A stretch of 64,000 bases of DNA from a bacterium (GTDB lineage: Bacteria > Patescibacteriota > Minisyncoccia > Phycocordibacterales > UBA5272). Below the pieces are notes generated by a model, which worked only from the letters and a program-made list of their open reading frames with translations, was not told the origin of the DNA and searched no databases. How positions within the stretch are numbered: the first letter of the stretch is position 1; each line of letters begins with the position of its first letter. This document shows positions 343-62,666 of this stretch, in pieces. The position numbers and the translations under genes are program-made. Where the stretch lies: assembly GCA_027482685.1 (NCBI GenBank), contig JAIXVU010000001.1, positions 11 to 64,010 of the forward strand. The letters run 5' to 3'.

Positions 343-1020
343 TTATTCTTGAGATGATAACTTCTTGTATATTTCAGCTGATGTAAGAAGTGTGAGAGGT
401 ACAGTAATGATGAGGCCCAGACCAAGAGGAATAGCCCCAAGAATATTAAGAAGTACTACAAGAATGATATACACGATAAGTTGTACTGAGTTACCTTTTG
501 TTAGGTGATAACTCTTCTTGAGTGCGGTTATCGCTGTAATGGTTTCGTTTTCAATGATGATGTACTTATAAAACTGTAAACGGATGAGGTAATAGAATCC
601 AATAAGTAGCACAATTCCAGCACCAGTAAGTACCGGGATACTCTTAGTAATATCAAAGTCAAAGGTAGTTCCAAAAGCAAGAACACTAAGAATAGCGAGA
701 ACACCTCCTACAGTAACAGCTGCGAGAAGCCCATACACAATGCTAGCGAGAGTATAGTTAACAAACACTTTATGACTTTTAAAATGATTGAATAAGTCAG
801 CAAAGGTAGGCGTATGGCCATGCGCTATTTGAATACTTACACCGATTAAGGCAATACTAACAATAAGCATCGCAAGCACTTCTAGGAGACCTGTTTTTGC
901 AACTGAAGTTACTATAATTGTTGAAATAAAGAACGCTATCGCGAGAAACCATGCGTGTTTCTTGAGATCAGACCAGCCTTTTGTAAATACTTCTTTTTGG
1001 GTAAATGTGTGTTTTGTCAT
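343..1020 (-). CDS. Hypothetical polytopic integral membrane protein (225 aa, about 6 TM)
   Basis: Full-length ORF with host-like AT-rich codon usage and multiple hydrophobic helices. No recognisable catalytic motif. Confidence 0.55.
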   Translation of the reverse strand: MTKHTFTQKEVFTKGWSDLKKHAWFLAIAFFISTIIVTSVAKTGLLEVLAMLIVSIALIGVSIQIAHGHTPTFADLFNHFKSHKVFVNYTLASIVYGLLAAVTVGGVLAILSVLAFGTTFDFDITKSIPVLTGAGIVLLIGFYYLIRLQFYKYIIIENETITAITALKKSYHLTKGNSVQLIVYIILVVLLNILGAIPLGLGLIITVPLTLLTSAEIYKKLSSQE

Positions 1021-5591: not shown

Positions 5592-7463
5592 CTAACCAAT
5601 AAAAAAATGAAGAGGGTTAATTATCGGTTTACCGTCATAGACAACTCTTTTAATTCTTTCACGAAGCGCTTGGTTGTGTGACCACTCAGACTCCTTAATG
5701 TGAATAAAAAGCAACGTTACTCCACGACCTTGCTCGAACCATTCTATGACATATGTGCCGAGCTCTTCTTCTATTTTATGTTTCATTTGATCTTGTAGAT
5801 TATCAAACGATGCTTTGATAACAGTGTAGTATGGTGGAAGTAAGAAACGCTCTCGTTCAGAAAGCAGTGTATCAAACACCTCACGAAACGATGGTGAGAT
5901 GAGTTGCTTAATGACTGGCAGATTTTTCATACGAGTTTGTAATATCATACGACCGCCACGACTACCATCACTTTTTTGTTTAACTTTTTCTGCCATCTCA
6001 GTTACAAGAGTCAGCACCTTCTCATCGTTTCTATATTCAGGAAGTGCAAAGAGTGAGTCAAGAGAAAGTATAACAATACCATCAGCATGAGTTACAACAT
6101 TATGAGCCATCTCAGTTCCAATTAATACACCATACTTGCTCTCAGTCCATTCTTTATATGTTTTTTTTATTTTCGCTCGTGTTGGTGTACGCTCACCATC
6201 AATAACAAAGAGAGGAATTCCTAGTCTTTGTAACTCTTCCTCTATTCCTGTTGTTGCGATACCGAGAGTTGTCATACGCCACCCTCCGCAATGTTTACAT
6301 GAGAGCGTGCTATCATCATCTAGTCTAATAATATTCTCACACCCATGACATACGTAGGTTCTAACTCCACCGATTTTGTGGAGAACATATGGGCGGTTAC
6401 ATGTAGAGCAGGTGAAGAGTAGCCCGCAGTCAGAACATACGGTCGTTGGGTACATTCCTTTTCTATGTGAGTAAAAGAAGTAATGACCGCTTTCATTGAG
6501 TTGCATCATGTGTAATAACGAGAGAGACTGTTTGCTCAGATAGGGACTGCTTGTTTTATTCTCATCTATCATAGGTACTATTGTTATGCCGGCATCATTT
6601 CTATATTGCATAGGCATGACCTCATTTGCATCACGTGTTTTATGTAGGAGATGCGCGTTTAGTGAGAGCATATGAGAACCAAGAAGGCAGGTAGTACTTG
6701 TTCCCTTACATAGCTCCATCAAAACAAATCTCATATCATACCCACCATCTCCATGTGTGTAATAGTAGTGGCTGTGCTCACGTTCAATAATGACTAGACC
6801 AAGATCAACTCTTACCCACGGGAGAAGTGAAGGGGTAGAAAGGATTAGCAGTGGGTGTTGATTAGTAAATAGTTCGTTTTGTGCTTCTGTATATTGTTTG
6901 TCTGTAAGTCCGCTATGAAGTGGGATAACATATTCATCTATTCCGCGAGACAGTTCATTCTTTGCACATTCAAGATCAGTGATCGTAGGGAAGAATATAA
7001 CGATTGACTGTTTCTTAGAAAAAGCTTCGCGTACTGTTGTTTTATAATGAGTGATGCGATGTGCGTAACTTTGTTCAAGAAGAAGGATTTCAAATCCACG
7101 AGGATTAATTTGTGGTTCTATTTTGGTAATAGAAGCAAATGATCTCTCTGAAATGAGGTCATAGAGTATAGTTCCAATTGGTCGAAGTAAGTAGGATGAC
7201 GTATACGAAAGTGCATTCCATAATTTTTGATGCAAGAATTCTTTTGTGATTGTTTTTGAAACTTTTTTGAGCCCAAATGATGCGTGACGGAGTGACTGAC
7301 GTTCTTCTTCTGCTTTTTCTGATGTAAGAACAAGAGCGCGCGAAATACGTCTCTTTATAGTTATCTCCACTAAGTCACCTGCGTGTATATCATCCCTTCC
7401 AAAGTAGGAAAGTTCTTCGTATGGAATGCCGCTTGCAAGTGGGGCTACAGTTACGACGCGCAT
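5592..7463 (-). CDS. priA: Primosomal protein N' (PriA) homologue with degenerate Walker A/B motifs
   Basis: PriA-type Cys-rich zinc ribbon (CSDCG...CSTCN...CHGCE...CKHCGG). N-terminal 3'-DNA-binding/winged-helix region. At the expected Walker A position the sequence reads LLLEQSYAHRITHY (no GxGKT). At the DEAH-box position it reads VIIEREHS. Confidence 0.75.
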   Translation of the reverse strand: MRVVTVAPLASGIPYEELSYFGRDDIHAGDLVEITIKRRISRALVLTSEKAEEERQSLRHASFGLKKVSKTITKEFLHQKLWNALSYTSSYLLRPIGTILYDLISERSFASITKIEPQINPRGFEILLLEQSYAHRITHYKTTVREAFSKKQSIVIFFPTITDLECAKNELSRGIDEYVIPLHSGLTDKQYTEAQNELFTNQHPLLILSTPSLLPWVRVDLGLVIIEREHSHYYYTHGDGGYDMRFVLMELCKGTSTTCLLGSHMLSLNAHLLHKTRDANEVMPMQYRNDAGITIVPMIDENKTSSPYLSKQSLSLLHMMQLNESGHYFFYSHRKGMYPTTVCSDCGLLFTCSTCNRPYVLHKIGGVRTYVCHGCENIIRLDDDSTLSCKHCGGWRMTTLGIATTGIEEELQRLGIPLFVIDGERTPTRAKIKKTYKEWTESKYGVLIGTEMAHNVVTHADGIVILSLDSLFALPEYRNDEKVLTLVTEMAEKVKQKSDGSRGGRMILQTRMKNLPVIKQLISPSFREVFDTLLSERERFLLPPYYTVIKASFDNLQDQMKHKIEEELGTYVIEWFEQGRGVTLLFIHIKESEWSHNQALRERIKRVVYDGKPIINPLHFFIG

Positions 7464-7590
7464 ATAGTACTAGTGTATAGGTTTTAGGGGATAGGGGCTA
7501 GTAGGTAACAAAAAACCTTGCGTGTCATGAGGCTGAGGGGAAAAGGGAACAAGGGGATTGATTATACTAAAAGTGTCAAGTGTTGCGTAT

Positions 7591-7620
7591 CTCTCTAAAC
7601 CTCTAGCCACTATACCCTAG
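7591..7620 (+). repeat. CCCTAA/CCTCTAGCC leader motif upstream of mreB
   Basis: ctaaacctctagccactataccctag lies 30 nt 5' of the mreB ATG. Member of the recurring motif family. Confidence 0.5.
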
Positions 7621-7650
7621 TTACCACTGGTATGATAGAATGCGTTCTAC

Positions 7651-8664
7651 ATGGGATTTTTCTTCAAGAAACTCGGAATTGATTTAGGAACAGCAAACAC
7701 TCTTGTATATGTACCAGGGAAAGGTGTTGTACTTGTTGAGCCATCTGTTGTTGCGGTGTCACAATTTGATAACAAGATAATGGCCGTTGGAAGCGATGCA
7801 AAGGACATGATAGGGAAGACACCAGATTCTATCATTGCATATCGTCCTATGCGTGATGGTGTAATTGCTGACTATCGTGTTACAGAAGCGATGCTACGTT
7901 ACTATATTCATAAAGCACTTGGCGGGTTCGCGCTCTTTAAGCCTGATGTCATGGTATCAGTTCCAGCTGGGGTTACATCAACAGAAAGACGTGCAGTAAT
8001 CGAAGCTGCTCTTAAGGCTGGAGCTCGTAATGCATATGTTGTGAAGGAGCCAATCCTTGCAGCAATAGGTGCGGGGATCCCCATTCATGAGGCGCAAGGG
8101 CGTATGATAGTTGATATTGGAGGTGGGACCACAGACGTTGCGGTGATATCTCTTGGGGGTATCGTATGCAGTACATCAGTTAAGTGTGCAGGCAACAAAA
8201 TAGATCAAGCAATTATTGATTATGTTAAGAAGACCTATAATCTTGCAATAGGAGATCAAACTGCAGAAGAAATAAAGATACAAGTAGGAAGTGCATTGCC
8301 TGTAGAAGAAGAGCTTGTTATGAAAGTAAAAGGAAGAGACTTCATAGCAGGGCTTCCACGAACAGTAGAGATACGAACTAATGAAATTGTAAAAGCGATC
8401 GACAAGGAGTTGCGTGCGATGATAAAAGCAATCAAAGATGTTCTCCAAGAGACACCACCAGAGCTCGCTTCAGATATTATCGATAACGGTATCATCATGA
8501 GTGGTGGTTCATCAATGCTTAGACATTTCCCCGATCTCGTTCTACGTCGTACGGGGGTAAAGGCAGTCCTTGCTGACGATGCGTTCTTCTGTGTTGCAAA
8601 GGGGACTGGTGTTGCGCTTGAGCATCTAGACACGTACAAGCGCTCCATCTTCGCTAAGAAGTAA
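7651..8664 (+). CDS. mreB: Rod shape-determining protein MreB (actin-like), paralog 1
   Basis: GIDLGTANTLVY, DIGGGTTDVAV and actin-fold phosphate motifs. 337 aa. Confidence 0.9.
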   Translation: MGFFFKKLGIDLGTANTLVYVPGKGVVLVEPSVVAVSQFDNKIMAVGSDAKDMIGKTPDSIIAYRPMRDGVIADYRVTEAMLRYYIHKALGGFALFKPDVMVSVPAGVTSTERRAVIEAALKAGARNAYVVKEPILAAIGAGIPIHEAQGRMIVDIGGGTTDVAVISLGGIVCSTSVKCAGNKIDQAIIDYVKKTYNLAIGDQTAEEIKIQVGSALPVEEELVMKVKGRDFIAGLPRTVEIRTNEIVKAIDKELRAMIKAIKDVLQETPPELASDIIDNGIIMSGGSSMLRHFPDLVLRRTGVKAVLADDAFFCVAKGTGVALEHLDTYKRSIFAKK

Positions 8665-8947
8665 CTTGTCGAAAAATCACTGCATCTACTTCTTTGTAAA
8701 GATTTTTTTGCTCCTGTGATGTACAACTTGTACATCTTAGTCTCAAAAAATCTATACGCCTCGTATCTACAGCATTTTTTCAACAAGTGAGTGGGGGATA
8801 AAATGTGTAACTCTTTCGTTACGTTTGTTACTCGCTCGTCAATGTACAAGTAAGTACAACTCCTCGCCCGCTCCTTCCTGATTAAGATTTGCATCATTTT
8901 CTGCTCTCGTTAGAATTTACTACTAACTAGTTTGCTATACTGTTTCA

Positions 8948-9622
8948 ATGAAATCTGTCATCACATTCTCTGAGATTCCTCCACATCATGCTGTGCTTAT
9001 GGTGCATAAAGAGAGAGGCGCCGTGGGCGCCTCTCTCTTTGACGAATTAAAAGAGTTGTCTCCGGTTCATAGATTCTTTGACCAGTCAGTTCTAGATATT
9101 GAGACAGCGAGATATATATCGTCGTGGTCTAACACTCCATACAGTGGAGAAAAAGTTGGGCTTATTTCCTTCAATACAGCTGGACTTGAAGCACAGAATG
9201 CTCTCCTTAAAGTTTTAGAAGAGCCAAGAGCAGGTGTACGCTTCATCATTATTACAACACACAGAGAGCACCTCATCCCAACAGTCTTATCAAGGCTTCA
9301 TCAGATGAATCTTACACAAGATGTTCTTCATGATGAGATGTATACAAAAGCTTACACATTTCTCACAACTCCAAAAGTTAACAGAATGAATCTCAAAGAA
9401 GTAAAATTGCTTCTTGAAGAAGAAGATGAAGAGGGACGCAAGAAACGCGAGTCCGTCAAGAGTTTTATCCTCGCACTTACTGATGTTTTGAAAACTGAAA
9501 ACAGTGAATCAAGATATATTCTTGAAACGTTAGAGTTCGCTTCATATGCATCTCGTCCTTCAACATCAGGCAAAGCGCTCATTGAGTACCTTGCTCTTCT
9601 ATTGCTAGAGATTAGAAATTAA
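8948..9622 (+). CDS. holB: DNA polymerase III delta' subunit-like clamp-loader protein (short form)
   Basis: AQNALLKVLEEP sensor motif and IPTVLSR, with no Walker A, fit delta'. 224 aa. An alternative TTG start is possible near 9055. Confidence 0.7.
   Translation: MKSVITFSEIPPHHAVLMVHKERGAVGASLFDELKELSPVHRFFDQSVLDIETARYISSWSNTPYSGEKVGLISFNTAGLEAQNALLKVLEEPRAGVRFIIITTHREHLIPTVLSRLHQMNLTQDVLHDEMYTKAYTFLTTPKVNRMNLKEVKLLLEEEDEEGRKKRESVKSFILALTDVLKTENSESRYILETLEFASYASRPSTSGKALIEYLALLLLEIRN
9008..9040. repeat. Palindromic hairpin aaagagagaggcgcc-GTGG-ggcgcctctctcttt embedded in-frame in the holB 5' region
   Basis: Core agaggcgccgtRggcgcctct is identical to the intergenic hairpin at 284-322. Here it encodes KERGAVGASLF inside the holB ORF. 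Confidence 0.6.
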
Positions 9623-9663
9623 TGTACAATTTGTCTACTAATAAGGTATTAAATTTTGTATTT

Positions 9664-9693
9664 CCTAACCCCTAATCTCTATACCCTAACTAT
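9664..9693 (+). repeat. CCCTAA leader motif (cctaacccctaatctctataccctaactat) abutting the frr start codon
   Basis: Ends 1 nt before the frr ATG. No SD sequence is present. Confidence 0.55.
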
Positions 9694-10248
9694 ATGTCAT
9701 ACAACTTTACAGATATACATCAAAAGAAAGAGGCAATAATCGATTGGTTGCATGGAGAGTATCGTTCTATTTCAACGGGTCGTGCTACACCTCAAGTGCT
9801 AGATCTTGTACATATAGACATGTATGGGGCACGAACTGCTATAGCGCATGCTGCGAGTATTACAATAGAAGACCCTCGTACACTTCGTGTATCACCATGG
9901 GATAAGACAATTTTAAGCGGAATGGAAAAAGCTATTAATGATGCAGATCTCGGACTATCAGTTGCATCTGACGCTGAAGGGCTACGTGTGCATTTCCCAG
10001 CGCTCACCACAGAGACACGTCAGAAGCTTGTTAAGTTACTTAAGGACAGACTAGAAGATGCCCGTGTGAAAGTCCGTTCTATGCGTGAAGATGGTAACAA
10101 AGATATTGATGCCCGCGAAAAAGCAGGAGAGTATGGTGAAGATGATAAGCGTCGTTATAGAGATGAGATGCAAAAGATAGTAGATGAAGCTAACCAGACT
10201 CTTGAAAGTACTTTTGATAAAAAAGAAAAAGAAGTAATGGGGGAGTAG
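9694..10248 (+). CDS. frr: Ribosome recycling factor
   Basis: Full-length RRF signature (ISTGRATPQVLDLV...RVSPWDK...LRVHFPALTTETRQKLVK). Confidence 0.92.
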   Translation: MSYNFTDIHQKKEAIIDWLHGEYRSISTGRATPQVLDLVHIDMYGARTAIAHAASITIEDPRTLRVSPWDKTILSGMEKAINDADLGLSVASDAEGLRVHFPALTTETRQKLVKLLKDRLEDARVKVRSMREDGNKDIDAREKAGEYGEDDKRRYRDEMQKIVDEANQTLESTFDKKEKEVMGE

Positions 10249-10283
10249 AAGTAAGGAGTATACTATAACAAATAACTAAATTA

Positions 10284-10318
10284 GAAATGAGGGACACCTG
10301 CGGTGTCCCTCATTTCTA
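10284..10318 (+). terminator. Terminator agaaatgagggacacc-tgcg-ggtgtccctcatttct
   Basis: Perfect 16-bp stem after the frr stop. Confidence 0.7.
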
Positions 10319-10382
10319 ATTGTATGTATCGCATGAAATATCTTTGCTATGGTATACTTTTGACTATCAAATAACTTAATTT

Positions 10383-12915: not shown

Positions 12916-12937
12916 ACCCGCGCCGTAGGCGCGGGTC
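12916..12937. terminator. Bidirectional terminator acccgcgcc-GTAG-gcgcgggt
   Basis: GC hairpin with GTAG loop between the convergent proS (+) and 12954..13352 (-) genes. Confidence 0.7.
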
Positions 12938-17178: not shown

Positions 17179-17201
17179 GGGACAGTACAAAGTACTGTCC
17201 C
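17179..17201. terminator. Bidirectional terminator gggacagtac-aa-agtactgtccc
   Basis: Perfect palindrome between the convergent mrdA (+) and 17224..17757 (-) genes. Confidence 0.65.
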
Positions 17202-18740: not shown

Positions 18741-18769
18741 GGGTAGTCAATAGTTTATGGTTAATAGTA

Positions 18770-18800
18770 GAACACGCGCGACCGAAGGTCGCGCGTGTTC
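18770..18800 (+). terminator. Terminator gaacacgcgcgacc-GAAG-gtcgcgcgtgttc
   Basis: Perfect 14-bp stem after greA. Related to the hairpin at 20843. Confidence 0.7.
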
Positions 18801-18923
18801 TGTATTTAACTAATTACAAATTACTAATAACTAATTACTTGTGCTTCCATATCGACTAAACTTCTCCAATTTGTTACTATACTGTATATCAACACGCATC
18901 TCAACTATTAACATTAACTATCC

Positions 18924-20531: not shown

Positions 20532-20840
20532 ATGATGCCAACTATCACAGTTCGGCTTGGAAGTACTCAAGATGTAACTACTTGCGAAGTTAGTGAAAAT
20601 GAACTTAAAGTGCTTAATTGTATAGGCGACAAAGAACTTACTCCGCTTCAGATTAGCAGGTTGATAAGTTATAAGGAAATCGAAAAGTCTAAACTTTATT
20701 CCATATTAGCAAAACTTCTTGCTAAAGGTCTCTTACAAAAAAAGCAAAAGTTTGTTCAAGAAGGTACCGCTTTGAAGAAAGCGGTATGTTATAAGAGAGC
20801 CTTTACTTTTGTTATTTTGATGATGGAAACAAAAGTGTAA
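20532..20840 (+). CDS. Small hypothetical protein, possible winged-helix DNA-binding (about 102 aa)
   Basis: LKVLNCIGDKELTPLQISRL...LYSILAKLLAKGLL resembles a MarR/wHTH recognition helix. GGAGGT SD overlaps the alternative ATGs. Confidence 0.4.
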   Translation: MMPTITVRLGSTQDVTTCEVSENELKVLNCIGDKELTPLQISRLISYKEIEKSKLYSILAKLLAKGLLQKKQKFVQEGTALKKAVCYKRAFTFVILMMETKV

Positions 20841-20842
20841 AG

Positions 20843-20874
20843 TAAGCGCGACCGAAGGTCGCGCTTGTTTTTGT
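20843..20874 (+). terminator. Terminator aagcgcgacc-GAAG-gtcgcgctt plus T-run
   Basis: GC hairpin followed by tgtttttg. Confidence 0.7.
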
Positions 20875-24639: not shown

Positions 24640-24917
24640 AACTAAAAAACGTTGTAGTATATTTCCATACTGTTGTTTTGTCCAAGAAAGGTGTAAGCAA
24701 TGAAAGAAAGAAAATCACTTCCCACTCTGTCTCTTGTCGCGTGGATGAGAGTGCGATTTGCGAGGTTCGATCCGCCAACATACGGCGAACTGTGGGTCAG
24801 AACTCTTCTCTTTCTGTCTTCACGTTTGAGAAGCCTTTCTCTCAGGCTCGAACGCGCTGCAAAAAAGCACAAGTGACGAAGTGAAAAGGCCGTACCCACG
24901 TTGTGGGTACGGCCTTT
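24640..24917 (+). ncRNA. Candidate structured ncRNA or cis-regulatory leader (about 270 nt), family unknown
   Basis: GC-rich block (about 50%) in an AT-rich genome with no credible ORF on either strand. Contains a tRNA-T-loop-like GGTTCGATCC. Ends in a strong hairpin aaaggccgtaccc-acgttgt-gggtacggccttt 26 nt before the photolyase ATG. Confidence 0.4.
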
Positions 24918-24942
24918 CCTACAATGCTATACTATTGCAATC

Positions 24943-28902: not shown

Positions 28903-28981
28903 TTTTGGGATATTTGTGGTTGAGTCTACATATTAAATAGACACTTTAGCAGCAGTCTAACTATTTTCTCTGGTATACTGC

Positions 28982-35931: not shown

Positions 35932-35960
35932 AAGCGCGCCGTAGGCGCGCTTTCTTTTTA
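35932..35960 (+). terminator. Terminator aagcgcgcc-GTAG-gcgcgctt plus T-run
   Basis: GTAG-loop hairpin family member. Confidence 0.7.
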
Positions 35961-40428: not shown

Positions 40429-40471
40429 TTATAAAGACTTTTTTTGATATACTAAAACACTACCCTTACTT

Positions 40472-44345: not shown

Positions 44346-44753
44346 ATGGCAACAGAAACAAAGAATCGTTATATAGAAGCAGTAGGACGTCGTAAGACAG
44401 CAGTTGCTCGTGTTCGTATCACTCCTGCAACAAAGGCATCTTTTACAGTAAACGATAAGGATGTAAAAGAATATTTTACAACACCAGATTTACAGGTTAT
44501 TGCAGAGGAAGCTATCATCAAAGGTGAGGTAGGAGAAAAGTTCTCTGTATCTGTACATGTTGTTGGAGGTGGTATCCATGGACAAGCAGAGGCTATTCGT
44601 CATGGACTATCTCGCACACTCGTACTTCGTGATGAGGAAGTTAAGAATAAGCTCAAGAAACTAGGTTTCTTGAAGCGTGATTCTCGTCAGGTAGAGCGCA
44701 AGAAATTCGGTCTCAAGAAAGCTCGTAAGGCTCCAACTTGGTCTAAGCGTTAA
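44346..44753 (+). CDS. rpsI: 30S ribosomal protein S9
   Basis: YIEAVGRRKTAVARV...GGGIHGQAEAIRHGLSRTL...KKARKAPTWSKR. Confidence 0.95.
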   Translation: MATETKNRYIEAVGRRKTAVARVRITPATKASFTVNDKDVKEYFTTPDLQVIAEEAIIKGEVGEKFSVSVHVVGGGIHGQAEAIRHGLSRTLVLRDEEVKNKLKKLGFLKRDSRQVERKKFGLKKARKAPTWSKR

Positions 44754-44757
44754 TAAT

Positions 44758-44784
44758 AAAAAACTGCACAATGTGCAGTTTTTT
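44758..44784. terminator. Bidirectional terminator aaaaactgcaca-atg-tgcagttttt
   Basis: Perfect palindrome with A- and T-runs on both sides, between rpsI (+) and 44803..45189 (-). Confidence 0.75.
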
Positions 44785-45189: not shown

Positions 45190-45267
45190 ATGGGTATGAG
45201 TATAGCATTTTAGGAAAATGGGTGGCGCTCTAGAGTATCTTTCATTTATAAGATTTTCTGGTAGGAT

Positions 45268-45887: not shown

Positions 45888-45915
45888 AACCCCCGCGCCT
45901 TTAGGCGCGGGGGTT
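45888..45915 (+). terminator. Terminator aacccccgcgcc-ttta-ggcgcgggggtt plus T-run
   Basis: 12-bp GC stem followed by tttattttttt. Confidence 0.75.
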
Positions 45916-45966: not shown

Positions 45967-46064
45967 TAGAAATGCTATACTAGAGAAGTTCAGAGACTAC
46001 AGATAATGACAGATGTGCGGGTATAGCATTATGAAGATATTGAACTTTTATTTGTAACCATATT

Positions 46065-49775: not shown

Positions 49776-49803
49776 TAATGCTCAGTAATTACGTAACCAA
49801 CAA

Positions 49804-49829
49804 AGGATACCAGTAAAGGTATCCTTTTT
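49804..49829 (+). terminator. Terminator aaaggatacc-agta-aaggtatccttttt
   Basis: Hairpin plus T-run 30 nt after the dnaJ stop. Confidence 0.65.
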
Positions 49830-52684: not shown

Positions 52685-52702
52685 CCTCACAGTTTCGTAC
52701 CA

Positions 52703-52728
52703 AAGCCCCTCAGCGATGAGGGGCTTTT
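52703..52728 (+). terminator. Terminator aaagcccctc-agcgatg-aggggctttt
   Basis: GC stem plus T-run. Confidence 0.75.
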
Positions 52729-57834: not shown

Positions 57835-57854
57835 GATGATATACTAACTCTACT

Positions 57855-59333: not shown

Positions 59334-59382
59334 AATAAGAAGTGTATAACCTAAAAACGCTCATGATATACTAATATTTACT

Positions 59383-60459: not shown

Positions 60460-61563
60460 ATGTTATCAAGAATTGATAAAACGCTTTTTATTACGGTTGT
60501 TATTATTTTAATCTCAGGGTTGCTATTTTTCGGTTCGGCTGCACTGGGGGTGCTTGCAAGCAATGAGGCAAAGTTTTATGGGATTATAGAAAATCAACTA
60601 ATCTATGCTTTTTTAGGCGGGTCACTTGCGTTGTTTTTGGGTATGTCGATTCCGTATCAATTATATAAAAAGTATGCATACGTACTTTTTGCTTTTTCTT
60701 TAGTGGTCACATCTCTTGTATTTGTACCAGGTCTTTCTATGTATCATGGTGGAGCGCACAGATGGATAGATTTAGGCCCCATTACTATTCAACCGAGTGA
60801 ATTCATGAAGTTTTGTTTTGTTGTTGTTGTTGCGTACTGGTGTAGCACATATAGGCATCTTTTTAAGAACTGGAAGTATGGACTGCTACCTTATGTTCTA
60901 GCGGGAGGACTTGTATCATTGTTATTGTTACTTCAGCCTGATTTCGGTACATATACGATTATTATGGCTTCATCGTTTGTTGTTTACTTTGTTGGAGGTG
61001 CTCGCAAGAAACATATTTATATCCTTCTTTTGCTTGCAGTGGTTGGCGCTGTTTTACTTATATCTGCTCGACCGTATATGTTGGAACGTGTTAAGACATT
61101 TTTTAATAATGAGTATGATCCTCACGGGGCATCATATCAACTACGGCAAGGGCTTATTGCTCTTGGAAGTGGGGGGCTTACTGGACGAGGTCTTGGGCAA
61201 AGTGTGCAAAAGTTTAATTATTTACCAGAGCCGATTGGAGATTCTATTCTTGCCGTTATTGGGGAAGAGCTTGGTTTTCTTGGGGTTGCGTATGTTGTTA
61301 TTCTCTATGGTATAGTAGGTAGGCGGGGATACTATATCTCAGTACATGCGGGTGACCAATTTGGAAGACTTCTGGCTATCGGAATAACTGTTATCATATT
61401 AACTCAAGCAATGATTAACATTATGTCTATGATCAAACTTTTCCCTCTTACAGGAGTACCTCTTCCTCTTATTTCGCATGGAGGAACAGCACTTATGGTT
61501 GTATTATTCCAGCTTGGTGTACTTCTTAATATTTCAAAATCATCTGATCAAAATCTTGTATGA
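60460..61563 (+). CDS. ftsW: SEDS-family peptidoglycan glycosyltransferase FtsW/RodA
   Basis: Polytopic membrane protein with the SEDS signature (PSEFMKF, GIPLPLISHGGTA), located between mraY and murG. Confidence 0.88.
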   Translation: MLSRIDKTLFITVVIILISGLLFFGSAALGVLASNEAKFYGIIENQLIYAFLGGSLALFLGMSIPYQLYKKYAYVLFAFSLVVTSLVFVPGLSMYHGGAHRWIDLGPITIQPSEFMKFCFVVVVAYWCSTYRHLFKNWKYGLLPYVLAGGLVSLLLLLQPDFGTYTIIMASSFVVYFVGGARKKHIYILLLLAVVGAVLLISARPYMLERVKTFFNNEYDPHGASYQLRQGLIALGSGGLTGRGLGQSVQKFNYLPEPIGDSILAVIGEELGFLGVAYVVILYGIVGRRGYYISVHAGDQFGRLLAIGITVIILTQAMINIMSMIKLFPLTGVPLPLISHGGTALMVVLFQLGVLLNISKSSDQNLV

Positions 61564-62666
61564 AAATACTACTAACAGGCGCAGGAGGAGGACATTTCAC
61601 ACCGCTTATAGCAGTAGCTGAACGGGTGCGTAAAGAGGTTTTCGTACAAAAAATCGTCCCACCAGAGCTATATTTTATGTCCGATAGACCCTATGACGAA
61701 AAAGCCCTCTCACAGAATCAGATAACATTCATTCAAGTTCCTGCTGGTAAACTTCGTCTTTATCCGTCACTTGAGACTATCCCTGATATTTTCAAAACTA
61801 TCTGGGGGTGCATTGTTGCTCTAAAAAAAATGTACTCCCTCTATCCAGATGTTATATTTGCAAAAGGGGGGTATGCTAGCTTTCCGGCGCTCTTTGCTGC
61901 GCGTATTTTATCTATTCCTGTAATTGTCCATGAAAGTGATACGGTGCCGGGAAGGACTACACTTTGGGCTGGGAAGTTCGCATCACGTGTAGCACTTTCA
62001 TATCCCGAGGCATCGCACGCCTATCGACGTGATGTCGTTGCATTAACAGGCCAACCTATTCGTGAGGCCCTGCTTCCACCAGAAGGATATACACGTAATT
62101 ATGGAAATAAAGAACGCCCTCTTATTCTTATCTTAGGTGGTTCACAGGGTAGTGCGGTTATTAACTCTCTTATAGCCGGCCTACTTCCTGATCTTCTTAA
62201 TAAATATGATGTTGTCCATCAAACAGGGGATACAAATGCAGATACAATGAAAGAACTTGTAAAAGAGACAATAACTACACATCCCTTTAAAGATCACTAT
62301 TTTGCAGCTGGGTATATCGATACTGGACTTTTTTACCCAAAAGCTGATATGGTTATTACTCGCGCCGGATCATCAATGTTTGAGATGGCGCTTTGGCAGT
62401 TACCAATGCTTGTTATTCCGATTCCAGAGACTATAAGTCGTGATCAGATAACTAACGCATACGCAATGGCTGGGAAGGGGACTGCTCTTGTACTTGAGGA
62501 AAATAACTTAGGTAAGACTCTTGTCCTTGAAGAAGTTTCACGTATCCTTGAAGACAAGGATACGTATGCAAAGATGTCACAAGCAGGCCTTCAGTTCGAG
62601 AACTCTCGCACTGCAGCAACAGTAATTGCTCGAGAACTTATTAGAATTGGGTTAAGCCATGCATAA
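61560..62666 (+). CDS. murG: UDP-N-acetylglucosamine--N-acetylmuramyl-(pentapeptide) pyrophosphoryl-undecaprenol N-acetylglucosamine transferase MurG
   Basis: N-terminal GGGHFTP glycine-rich loop, GGSQG and the GT-B fold. Confidence 0.9.
   Translation: MKILLTGAGGGHFTPLIAVAERVRKEVFVQKIVPPELYFMSDRPYDEKALSQNQITFIQVPAGKLRLYPSLETIPDIFKTIWGCIVALKKMYSLYPDVIFAKGGYASFPALFAARILSIPVIVHESDTVPGRTTLWAGKFASRVALSYPEASHAYRRDVVALTGQPIREALLPPEGYTRNYGNKERPLILILGGSQGSAVINSLIAGLLPDLLNKYDVVHQTGDTNADTMKELVKETITTHPFKDHYFAAGYIDTGLFYPKADMVITRAGSSMFEMALWQLPMLVIPIPETISRDQITNAYAMAGKGTALVLEENNLGKTLVLEEVSRILEDKDTYAKMSQAGLQFENSRTAATVIARELIRIGLSHA

Follow-up and report, generated by a model that had tools for sequence, protein, structure and literature searches.

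A codon-aligned, covarying hairpin inside holB of Paceibacterota: a candidate translation-gated attenuator

In the window analysed here (the whole 64-kb stretch of DNA, 64,000 nt), the gene holB carries a perfect palindrome at positions 9008–9040, near its 5′ end and in register with its codons. Hairpins of 11–15 bp centred on the same codon are present in 17 of 50 distinct orthologous DNAs, and, from the alignment of their stems, base pairing at these codons shapes the protein sequence. Our best reading, to which we assign a probability of roughly 0.35–0.4, is that the palindrome is an ancestral terminator-type hairpin that would make RNA polymerase pause or stop if the stem has not been opened by the leading ribosome, and whose arms may be kept perfect by template switching.

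The palindrome and the gene that carries it

A repeat finder and a separate scan agreed on the sequence of 9008–9040, AAAGAGAGAGGCGCC-GTG-GGCGCCTCTCTCTTT, in which two 15-nt arms, 100% complementary, flank a 3-nt spacer, GTG. An earlier sequence-only reading of this DNA had the 33-nt span right and the loop, given as GTGG, wrong through a one-base miscount. The palindrome makes up codons 21–31 of the open reading frame (ORF) 8948..9622, AAA GAG AGA GGC GCC / GTG / GGC GCC TCT CTC TTT, and encodes KERGAVGASLF with no break in the frame, as that reading had stated. The left arm (9008..9022, + strand) supplies K21, E22, R23, G24 and A25, the loop codon (9023..9025, +) V26, and the right arm (9026..9040, +) G27, A28, S29, L30 and F31. 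Pairing follows the codons: AAA/TTT, GAG/CTC, AGA/TCT, GGC/GCC and GCC/GGC.

The palindrome is far beyond chance. Its RNA fold reaches −33.2 kcal/mol, compared with −17.3 ± 2.6 kcal/mol for dinucleotide shuffles of the region (z = −6.2; 0 of 200 shuffles equalled it), and the DNA fold gives z = −7.0. Given KERGAVGASLF and the codon usage of the window, a perfect palindrome has a probability of 1.2e-7, so the pairing is no by-product of the peptide. Both GCC and GGC are rare in the window, at 7% of Ala and 13% of Gly codons, and each occurs twice within it.

The host gene (8948..9622, +) encodes a DNA polymerase III delta-prime of the short kind, 224 amino acids long. The product matches Pfam PF13177 (E = 1.2e-11, above the family cutoff), and its best NCBIfam match is the short delta-prime family PRK08485 (E = 1.7e-20, under the curated cutoff); PDB profile matches are to gamma/tau, delta-prime and RFC subunits. 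The identification also draws on the homologues, the AlphaFold model and holB–frr synteny. Of the 213 homologues, almost all belong to metagenome bins of Candidatus Paceibacterota/Nomurabacteria; setting the protein itself aside, the nearest is 58% identical.

In the AlphaFold model (predicted local distance difference test, pLDDT, 94.3), residues 15–19 form strand beta-1, 20–22 a loop and 23–37 helix alpha-1. The Walker A motif is degenerate: GxxxxGK[ST] was not found in the product, and the orthologue alignment gives the consensus HHAVLxVHxxRxxxxxxLW. H13, H14, A15 and R23 are invariant among 36 aligned orthologues, and the H13-H14-A15 motif (8984..8992, +), which precedes the palindrome at the start of the strand beta-1 region, anchors both frame and start. 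On this model the palindrome encodes the vestigial P-loop, at the Walker-A position, and the first turns of helix alpha-1. Because the alignment of the PDB sequence search did not cover the N-terminal 70 residues of the product, the P-loop assignment leans on the modelled strand–loop–helix and on the HHA motif, which is shared with E. coli delta-prime. Among orthologues the palindrome segment is the one early stretch of delta-prime that varies freely.

The sequence-only reading had offered two structural explanations, an in-frame insertion and a holB start that lies downstream, at a TTG near 9055. The alignment of orthologues that it proposed as a check speaks against an insertion: the 36 orthologues (215–225 amino acids) align gap-free through the 11 codons, the 50 orthologous DNA segments likewise have no gap there, and the segment is the normal strand–loop–helix of the AAA+ fold. 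Nor did the comparison yield either outcome foreseen at the time, one of which was the same residues encoded by ordinary, non-palindromic DNA; the segment keeps its length throughout, about two-thirds of the orthologues have no palindrome, and about one-third have a palindrome of their own.

An insertion might have been a mobile palindromic element like those of Rickettsia, which are in-frame palindromic insertions in protein genes, as reportedly described by Ogata et al. (2000). The resemblance lies in in-frame palindromic DNA at a structurally permissive site of a conserved protein, and such an origin would agree with the likeness of the palindrome to other hairpins of this genome, above all with the 13 of 15 arm bases that it has in common with the hairpin at 283–321. 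Rickettsia elements are, however, insertions of 100–150 bp in multi-copy families, whereas the palindrome in holB leaves the gene no longer than its orthologues and, within these 64 kb, has no second copy of its sequence. The site is as long in all 36 orthologues and aligns residue for residue (e.g. GERGAVGAALW in P0003), R23 in the left arm is invariant, and the hairpins of the window are not a multi-copy sequence family. With no extra residues at codons 21–31 in the 36 proteins or the 50 DNA segments, we rejected an insertion of this type, which we regard as very improbable. Ectopic conversion from 283–321 could conceivably lie behind the window's own variant of the stem.

Still less credible is a mis-annotated start, in which holB would begin at TTG 9056–9058 and the hairpin would fall in the 5′ untranslated region. 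All that speaks for it is an in-frame TTG (L37). The invariant HHA motif and R23 lie upstream of that codon, strand beta-1 and helix alpha-1 would be lost, and orthologous ATGs stand 6–8 nt past a conserved −10 box, as does ATG 8948. Judged by these alignments, both the insertion and the downstream start are refuted.

Recurrence at the same codons in orthologues

Orthologous DNA was drawn from GTDB genomes, JGI/ENA metagenomes and contigs encoding selected proteins; for each orthologue the 33 nt aligned to codons 21–31 were extracted, giving the 50 distinct sequences. Among the 17 with a hairpin are GAGCGCGAGGCC-GTA-GGCCTCGCGCTC (L003, encoding GEREAVGLALW), GAGCGTGACGCC-TAC-GGCGTCACGCTC (L083, NERDAYGVTLW), GAGCGCAAAGCC-GTA-GGCTTTGCGCTC (L093, SERKAVGFALW), GAGCGCGGCGCC-GTA-GGCGCCGCGCTC (L115, GERGAVGAALW), GAACGCGATGCC-GTA-GGCATCGCGTTC (L120, SERDAVGIAFY) and AAGATCGAGGCACT-TAC-GGTGCCTCGATCTT (L114, KDRGTYGASIF). 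The stems differ by compensatory swaps of whole codons (GAG/CTC, GAC/GTC, GGC/GCC, AAA/TTT, GAT/ATC, CGC/GCG, CGT/ACG, AGA/TCT and GAA/TTC), and the two halves of the peptide therefore covary, residues i and 12 − i as reverse-complement codons (E–L, D–V or D–I, G–A, K–F, and R–A, R–S or R–T).

In the ungapped alignment of the 17 hairpins, both-sided changes are seen at 8 of the 15 pairs scored; these 8 belong to the 12-bp core, and the changes amount to 22 cells. Covariation scores 0.292, a value reached by 0 of 500 shuffles (0.105), and registers slid by 1–3 nt score 0.07–0.12. The 17 were chosen by folding energy, which inflates the percentage paired and leaves the both-sided changes unaffected. 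When all 50 sequences are taken together, 54.7% of cells are paired, above both controls (46% in shuffles; 0 of 500 as high). At the peptide level, codon pairs compatible with reverse complementarity (at least four, contiguous round the central codon) are found in 20 of 116 orthologue peptides and in 0.15% of other 11-residue windows of the same proteins. One of the 20 is a false positive: P0043 (TERRALGASLF, locus L113) passed the peptide test and its DNA has no hairpin.

Synonymous sites point the same way. At identical amino acids, codon identity among hairpin-bearers is 0.785 in the arms and 0.476 in the rest of the gene; among non-bearers it is 0.361 in the arms and 0.406 elsewhere. The arms, at 75–83% G+C, are a local anomaly, and we rejected G+C pressure as the cause of pairing, since loci with the hairpin are no more G+C-rich than those without (39% vs. 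41%). Two contigs that encode exactly this protein, from Logan SRR16126875 and SRR16126879, match the DNA of the window at 100% and so give no information on polymorphism. The suggestion in the sequence-only reading that an mRNA structure affects holB expression is alive and strengthened, because 16 other lineages have pairing at these very codons, kept through compensatory changes. Whatever its function, the site is an unusually clean natural case of nucleic-acid pairing dictating protein sequence, and a warning to annotators and to analyses of protein evolution that apparent residue coevolution can arise at the DNA or RNA level.

On the sense strand, 9 of the 17 loops are GNA (six GTA, two GAA, one GCA) and 5 are its reverse complement, TNC (four TAC, one TGC), so that within each class only the middle base varies; the window itself has GTG. 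Three pairs of loci have identical stems and inverted loops, GTA in L003 and TAC in L008, GTA in L093 and TAC in L121, and GCA in L123 and TGC in L116, an inversion that recodes codon 26 (window numbering) between Val and Tyr or between Ala and Cys. Stems are perfectly Watson–Crick, without a mismatch, in 12 of the 17.

Bearers of the hairpin are scattered over a neighbour-joining protein tree (short and noisy), and adjoining sequences hold recognisable remnants. Most bearers share the consensus stem GAGCGCGAGGCC. In L006 (1555–1587) and in L089, which has the same sequence, that left arm is intact and the right arm has diverged, while L119 (1137–1169) is half-decayed, with three non-Watson–Crick pairs (two C.A mismatches and one G.U wobble). 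The simplest history we infer is a single origin in the clade ancestor followed by repeated loss; the hairpin would then be ancestral to the HHA clade. A covariance model built from the holB hairpins found no match in about 60 more distant delta-prime loci (L018–L080, ~30% identity, including Helicobacter and Campylobacter), and the hairpin is therefore confined to the HHA clade. The gene upstream could be read in 13 loci with the hairpin and is divergent in 10 of them; the hairpin thus does not serve to terminate a co-directional gene ahead of holB.

Promoter, related hairpins and possible functions

Upstream of holB lies an extended −10 promoter, TGcTATACT (8933..8941, +), whose hexamer TATACT (8936–8941) is followed by 6 nt and then ATG 8948. 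A TGnTATACT box stands 6–8 nt ahead of the ATG in nearly all orthologous holB loci. In the window, TGNTATACT occurs 12 times where 3.4 are expected, mostly directly upstream of ORF starts; the sites include 8933–8941, 10350–10358, 24925–24933, 28971–28979, 40445–40453, 45199–45207 (−), 45973–45981, 57837–57845 and 59364–59372. Conservation of the box in dozens of Paceibacterota genomes suggests a clade-typical promoter of leaderless or very short-leader mRNAs. Because the −10 box sits 6 nt before the ATG, the holB mRNA is predicted to be leaderless or nearly so, its start being placed by the spacing of the promoter motif, and the hairpin would occupy about +61 to +93 of it.

The window also contains a family of about 13 intergenic hairpins, recovered by searching it for perfect stems of 9 bp or more. 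The hairpin at 283–321, GATACAGAAAGAGGCGCC-GTA-GGCGCCTCTTTCTGTATC, has an 18-bp stem and lies between genes, 22 nt past the stop of ORF 343..1020 (−). That at 2269–2331 has a 30-bp stem and the loop GTA. A 20-bp stem with the loop TGC at 10279–10321, 31 nt past the frr stop, presumably marks the end of the holB–frr unit and belongs to the same hairpin family. Others are at 12916–12936 and 35932–35952 (both GTA), 17179–17201 (AAA), 18769–18801 and 20844–20866 (both GAA), 44758–44784, 45888–45915, 49802–49827 and 52702–52727. All of these lie 4–50 nt past the stop of a long ORF, often between convergent genes; the exception is 24885–24917 (loop GTT), 265 nt past the nearest stop and directly before a promoter motif. 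Most of the intergenic hairpins are capped by [G/A]CC-GNA-GG[C/T] triloops, and most have no U-run.

The holB palindrome is the only long, G+C-rich hairpin inside an ORF of the window. Weaker hairpins inside ORFs are found at 20765–20786 (9 bp), 44653–44673 (9 bp) and 62540–62565 (11 bp); the last, ACGTATCCTTG-AAGA-CAAGGATACGT, lies in ORF 61560..62666 about 100 nt before its stop and is not codon-symmetric.

The closest sequence relative of the holB palindrome is 283–321, with 13 of 15 matches per arm (0.08 such matches expected). It is the only sequence in the window within 2 mismatches of a holB arm, and the other hairpin stems are unrelated. The covariance model of the holB hairpins matches three of the window hairpins, at 2287–2316 (31 bits), 289–319 (29.7 bits) and 18757–18812 (19.9 bits). 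The likeness to a terminator family noted in the sequence-only reading is thus borne out by the perfect triloop hairpins that follow stops and by the kinship with 283–321. From these comparisons 'terminator-family' is a fair description of the architecture; termination by these hairpins is only presumed. Long perfect GNA-capped hairpins after genes are an unusual terminator architecture for bacteria, and the genomes of this group, on these data, place very long perfect palindromes with C-GNA-G caps behind their genes and use TGnTATACT promoters. The same style of hairpin is seen in related genomes, for example at 1439–1471 of L008 and 1318–1357 of L006.

We propose that the holB hairpin works as a translation-gated attenuator that needs no leader peptide of its own. 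With transcription driven by the TGnTATACT box that ends 6 nt short of the ATG, the mRNA would be leaderless and would present the hairpin early in the nascent RNA, where it would act like the intergenic members of the family, as a hairpin-dependent pause or termination signal. That the covariance model of the holB hairpins also matches intergenic hairpins following stops supports this architecture. Its position within the ORF would allow the leading ribosome to melt the stem. Only prompt translation would then give full-length transcripts of holB, and possibly of frr, which would keep delta-prime scarce. Perfect complementarity and loop flips would be kept by template switching within the palindrome during DNA replication, aided by the stable C-GNA-G mini-hairpin at its top. 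The step in which polymerase pauses or terminates and the ribosome melts the stem is the weakest of the mechanism. We rate as rather unlikely its fullest form, in which RNA polymerase stops at about +95 unless a 70S ribosome from the 5′-terminal AUG has already reached codon ~20 and melted the stem.

Among known systems, such an element would work most like a ribosome-sensitive attenuator or pause hairpin. As in the E. coli trp leader, with its 1:2 pause and 3:4 terminator hairpins, an early stable hairpin in a translated stretch would let the ribosome decide the fate of the polymerase. The position is also that of a leader attenuator, for the −10 box at 8936–8941, ATG 8948 and the hairpin at 9008–9040 put the hairpin within ~100–200 nt of a start site that is itself predicted from the motif. 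Unlike a trp-type attenuator, holB has no separate leader peptide, its own first 31 codons standing in for one, no antiterminator fold and no clear U-tract; its mRNA is apparently leaderless. Compared with an intrinsic terminator, the holB hairpin has the G+C-rich stem (15 bp, perfect, −27 to −33 kcal/mol) and lacks the placement after a stop, lying at codons 21–31 of a 224-codon ORF.

Several findings weigh against this proposal. The absence of a trailing T-run, which had been remarked on from the letters, holds for the full 15-bp stem, which is followed by GACGAAUUAAAAG; if the stem is counted as its upper, G+C-rich 8–9 bp alone, the tail is UCUCUUU (5 U in 7). Most orthologous hairpins, which run on into UGGAAYGAA, and the full-length stem of the window have no U-tract, and the holB hairpin was not among the calls of a scan for consensus terminators. 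There is no antiterminator: minimum-free-energy and centroid folds of 8948–9110 contain only the hairpin, with no helix competing for an arm. About two-thirds of the orthologues (33 of 50) do without the hairpin, which is therefore dispensable. We infer termination, pausing and the transcription start alike, and termination by the intergenic family is likewise presumed. Because the loop motif is strand-symmetric and the GNA mini-hairpin is stable mainly as DNA (d(GCGNAGC) is extraordinarily stable as DNA and far less so as RNA; PMC13037366), GNA on either strand favours a constraint at the DNA level over one at the RNA level. Finally, template switching alone could yield the covariation and the conserved synonymous sites with no selected function.

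That last possibility, of a functionless and self-perpetuating palindrome, is the main rival, and we rate it as possible, if on the unlikely side. The palindrome would have arisen by template switching in the only permissive stretch of delta-prime, and switching from arm to arm would outpace new mutations; only G+C-rich stems with a GNA top would persist while others decay, and any effects on expression would be incidental. Published work argues that perfect hairpins can be both made and preserved by template switching, and that imperfect repeats are preferentially corrected to perfect ones (Monttinen and Loytynoja 2022, PMC8794818; Lavi et al. 2018, PMC5941160). Inverted loops and arms homogenised several bases at a time are known outcomes of such switching within a palindrome. 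The holB hairpins resemble such repeats in their perfect arms, in multi-base compensation on both sides (the 8 pairs and 22 cells above) and in inversion of the spacer between otherwise identical stems. They differ from them in being codon-aligned in a protein gene, where each compensation alters two amino acids, and in coming from many uncultured lineages of the candidate phyla radiation (CPR) rather than from rRNA genes or Proteobacteria. The 12 stems without mismatch, GNA or TNC loops on either strand, the frequent loss and decay (33 of 50 without the hairpin, only the left arm in L006 and L089, L119 half-decayed) and the free variability of the protein segment all fit an absence of function. 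It would leave unexplained, however, why the architecture is shared with a family whose members are constrained to positions after stops, and why, among neighbouring conserved genes (mreB, frr, rseP), holB alone carries such a palindrome in many lineages. With a hairpin of 11–15 bp and −22 to −27 kcal/mol so early in an mRNA, inside its first 100 nt, expression would hardly stay unaffected. Long perfect palindromes are normally prone to deletion, but here the lineages that share one have delta-prime proteins only ~55% identical.

A post-transcriptional role, as an element of RNA processing, stability or translation, appears unlikely. Here cutting by RNase III, a block to 5′-to-3′ or 3′-to-5′ exonucleases or slowing of early ribosomes (the last being the 'slows translation' idea of the sequence-only reading) would set the holB:frr ratio after transcription. 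The pairing has been kept through compensatory change, holB always neighbours frr although the cell needs their products in very unequal amounts, and stems of 12–15 bp are within reach of double-strand-specific RNases. Wobble pairs on the sense strand add, for this reading as for our own, a weak hint of constraint at the RNA level, as the non-Watson–Crick pairs of non-decaying stems are sense-strand G.U or U.G (L114, L117, L118 and L123; 4 of 5 wobbles G.U, none A.C). This asymmetry amounts to 4–5 events vs. 0–2, where 5:3 is expected from codon positions, and is not significant. The hairpin also lies at least 50 nt from the start codon, past the footprint of the initiating ribosome, and ribosomes unwind such stems; nor is a strand-symmetric loop motif expected of a purely RNA element.

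We think it quite improbable that the palindrome is a signal in DNA, either a site for a dimeric protein or a single-strand hairpin for replication or priming, shared with 283–321. The match of 13 of 15 bases per arm, the symmetry of the loop motif between strands and the occurrence of C-GNA-G mini-hairpins at phage and plasmid priming sites and N4 promoters (PMC13037366) would all suit such a signal. Like the d(GCGNAGC) mini-hairpins of Hirao and co-workers (PMC13037366), the holB hairpins have a C-G-closed GNA triloop at the apex (9 of 17 on the sense and 5 of 17 on the antisense strand), as do most intergenic hairpins of the window; unlike in the natural cases, the motif here caps long stems, after genes and in holB, and the window's own holB loop is GTG, not GNA. 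Orthologous stems, though, differ freely and stay complementary, which is the signature of a hairpin and not of a sequence-specific operator, and this explanation names no candidate binding protein.

Two further comparisons ended in rejection. The clamp-loader gene dnaX of E. coli has an internal stem-loop that stimulates frameshifting, and the holB hairpin likewise lies in the coding region of a clamp-loader subunit gene; it lies near the 5′ end, however, no alternative-frame product is apparent, and by eye the upstream CTT ATG GTG CAT (AAA GAG) has no slippery X XXY YYZ heptamer for a programmed −1 frameshift. An extragenic palindrome of the REP (repetitive extragenic palindromic) or BIME (bacterial interspersed mosaic element) type, which would be imperfect and present in many near-identical copies, was set aside because the holB palindrome lies within a gene, has perfect arms and is unique in its sequence. 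Searches of Rfam (the whole window at the gathering threshold, and 8600–9700 at E<=10) returned only the tRNA at 1–63 (−) and meaningless miRNA-type matches on the hairpin, and a literature search on CPR terminators found nothing relevant.

Should the pairing prove functional, it would make a compact regulator that does without a leader, in which a leaderless transcript carries a terminator-type hairpin where it encodes what is left of a dispensable P-loop in a replication protein. If the translation-gated stop in particular is true, synthesis of the clamp loader, and possibly of the frr product, would be coupled directly to ribosome availability in reduced-genome CPR bacteria, through a control element written into, and constraining, the vestigial P-loop of the protein it regulates. 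The Paceibacterota, like the CPR as a whole, are uncultured, and almost nothing is known of their gene regulation.

Neighbouring sequence

Downstream of holB, frr (9694..10248, +) encodes ribosome recycling factor (PF01765, E = 3e-49; synteny) and is its conserved partner: the two genes are adjacent in all related loci whose downstream genes were examined. Upstream, the spacer between mreB and holB (8665–8947) is unusually long, at 283 nt, has no Rfam match and contains an imperfect 23-nt palindrome (8704–8750, 78% complementary). It also holds TGTACAA motifs at 8720, 8728 (−) and 8843, with a fourth at 9623, directly past the holB stop; the motif is not enriched across the window (18 vs. 12.8 expected). 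A 213-amino-acid ORF antisense to mreB (8256–8897, −) has no Pfam match and is almost certainly spurious; a fragment of it is called as a gene on contig L082.

Strands switch at 7463–7651, between priA (5592..7463, −) and mreB (7651.., +), and downstream genes as far as 62 kb are nearly all on the + strand. GC skew is positive across the window, and no replication origin is evident near the locus or elsewhere in the window. The tRNA gene at 1–63 (−), recognised by Rfam RF00005 (49.7 bits), is cut by the window edge.

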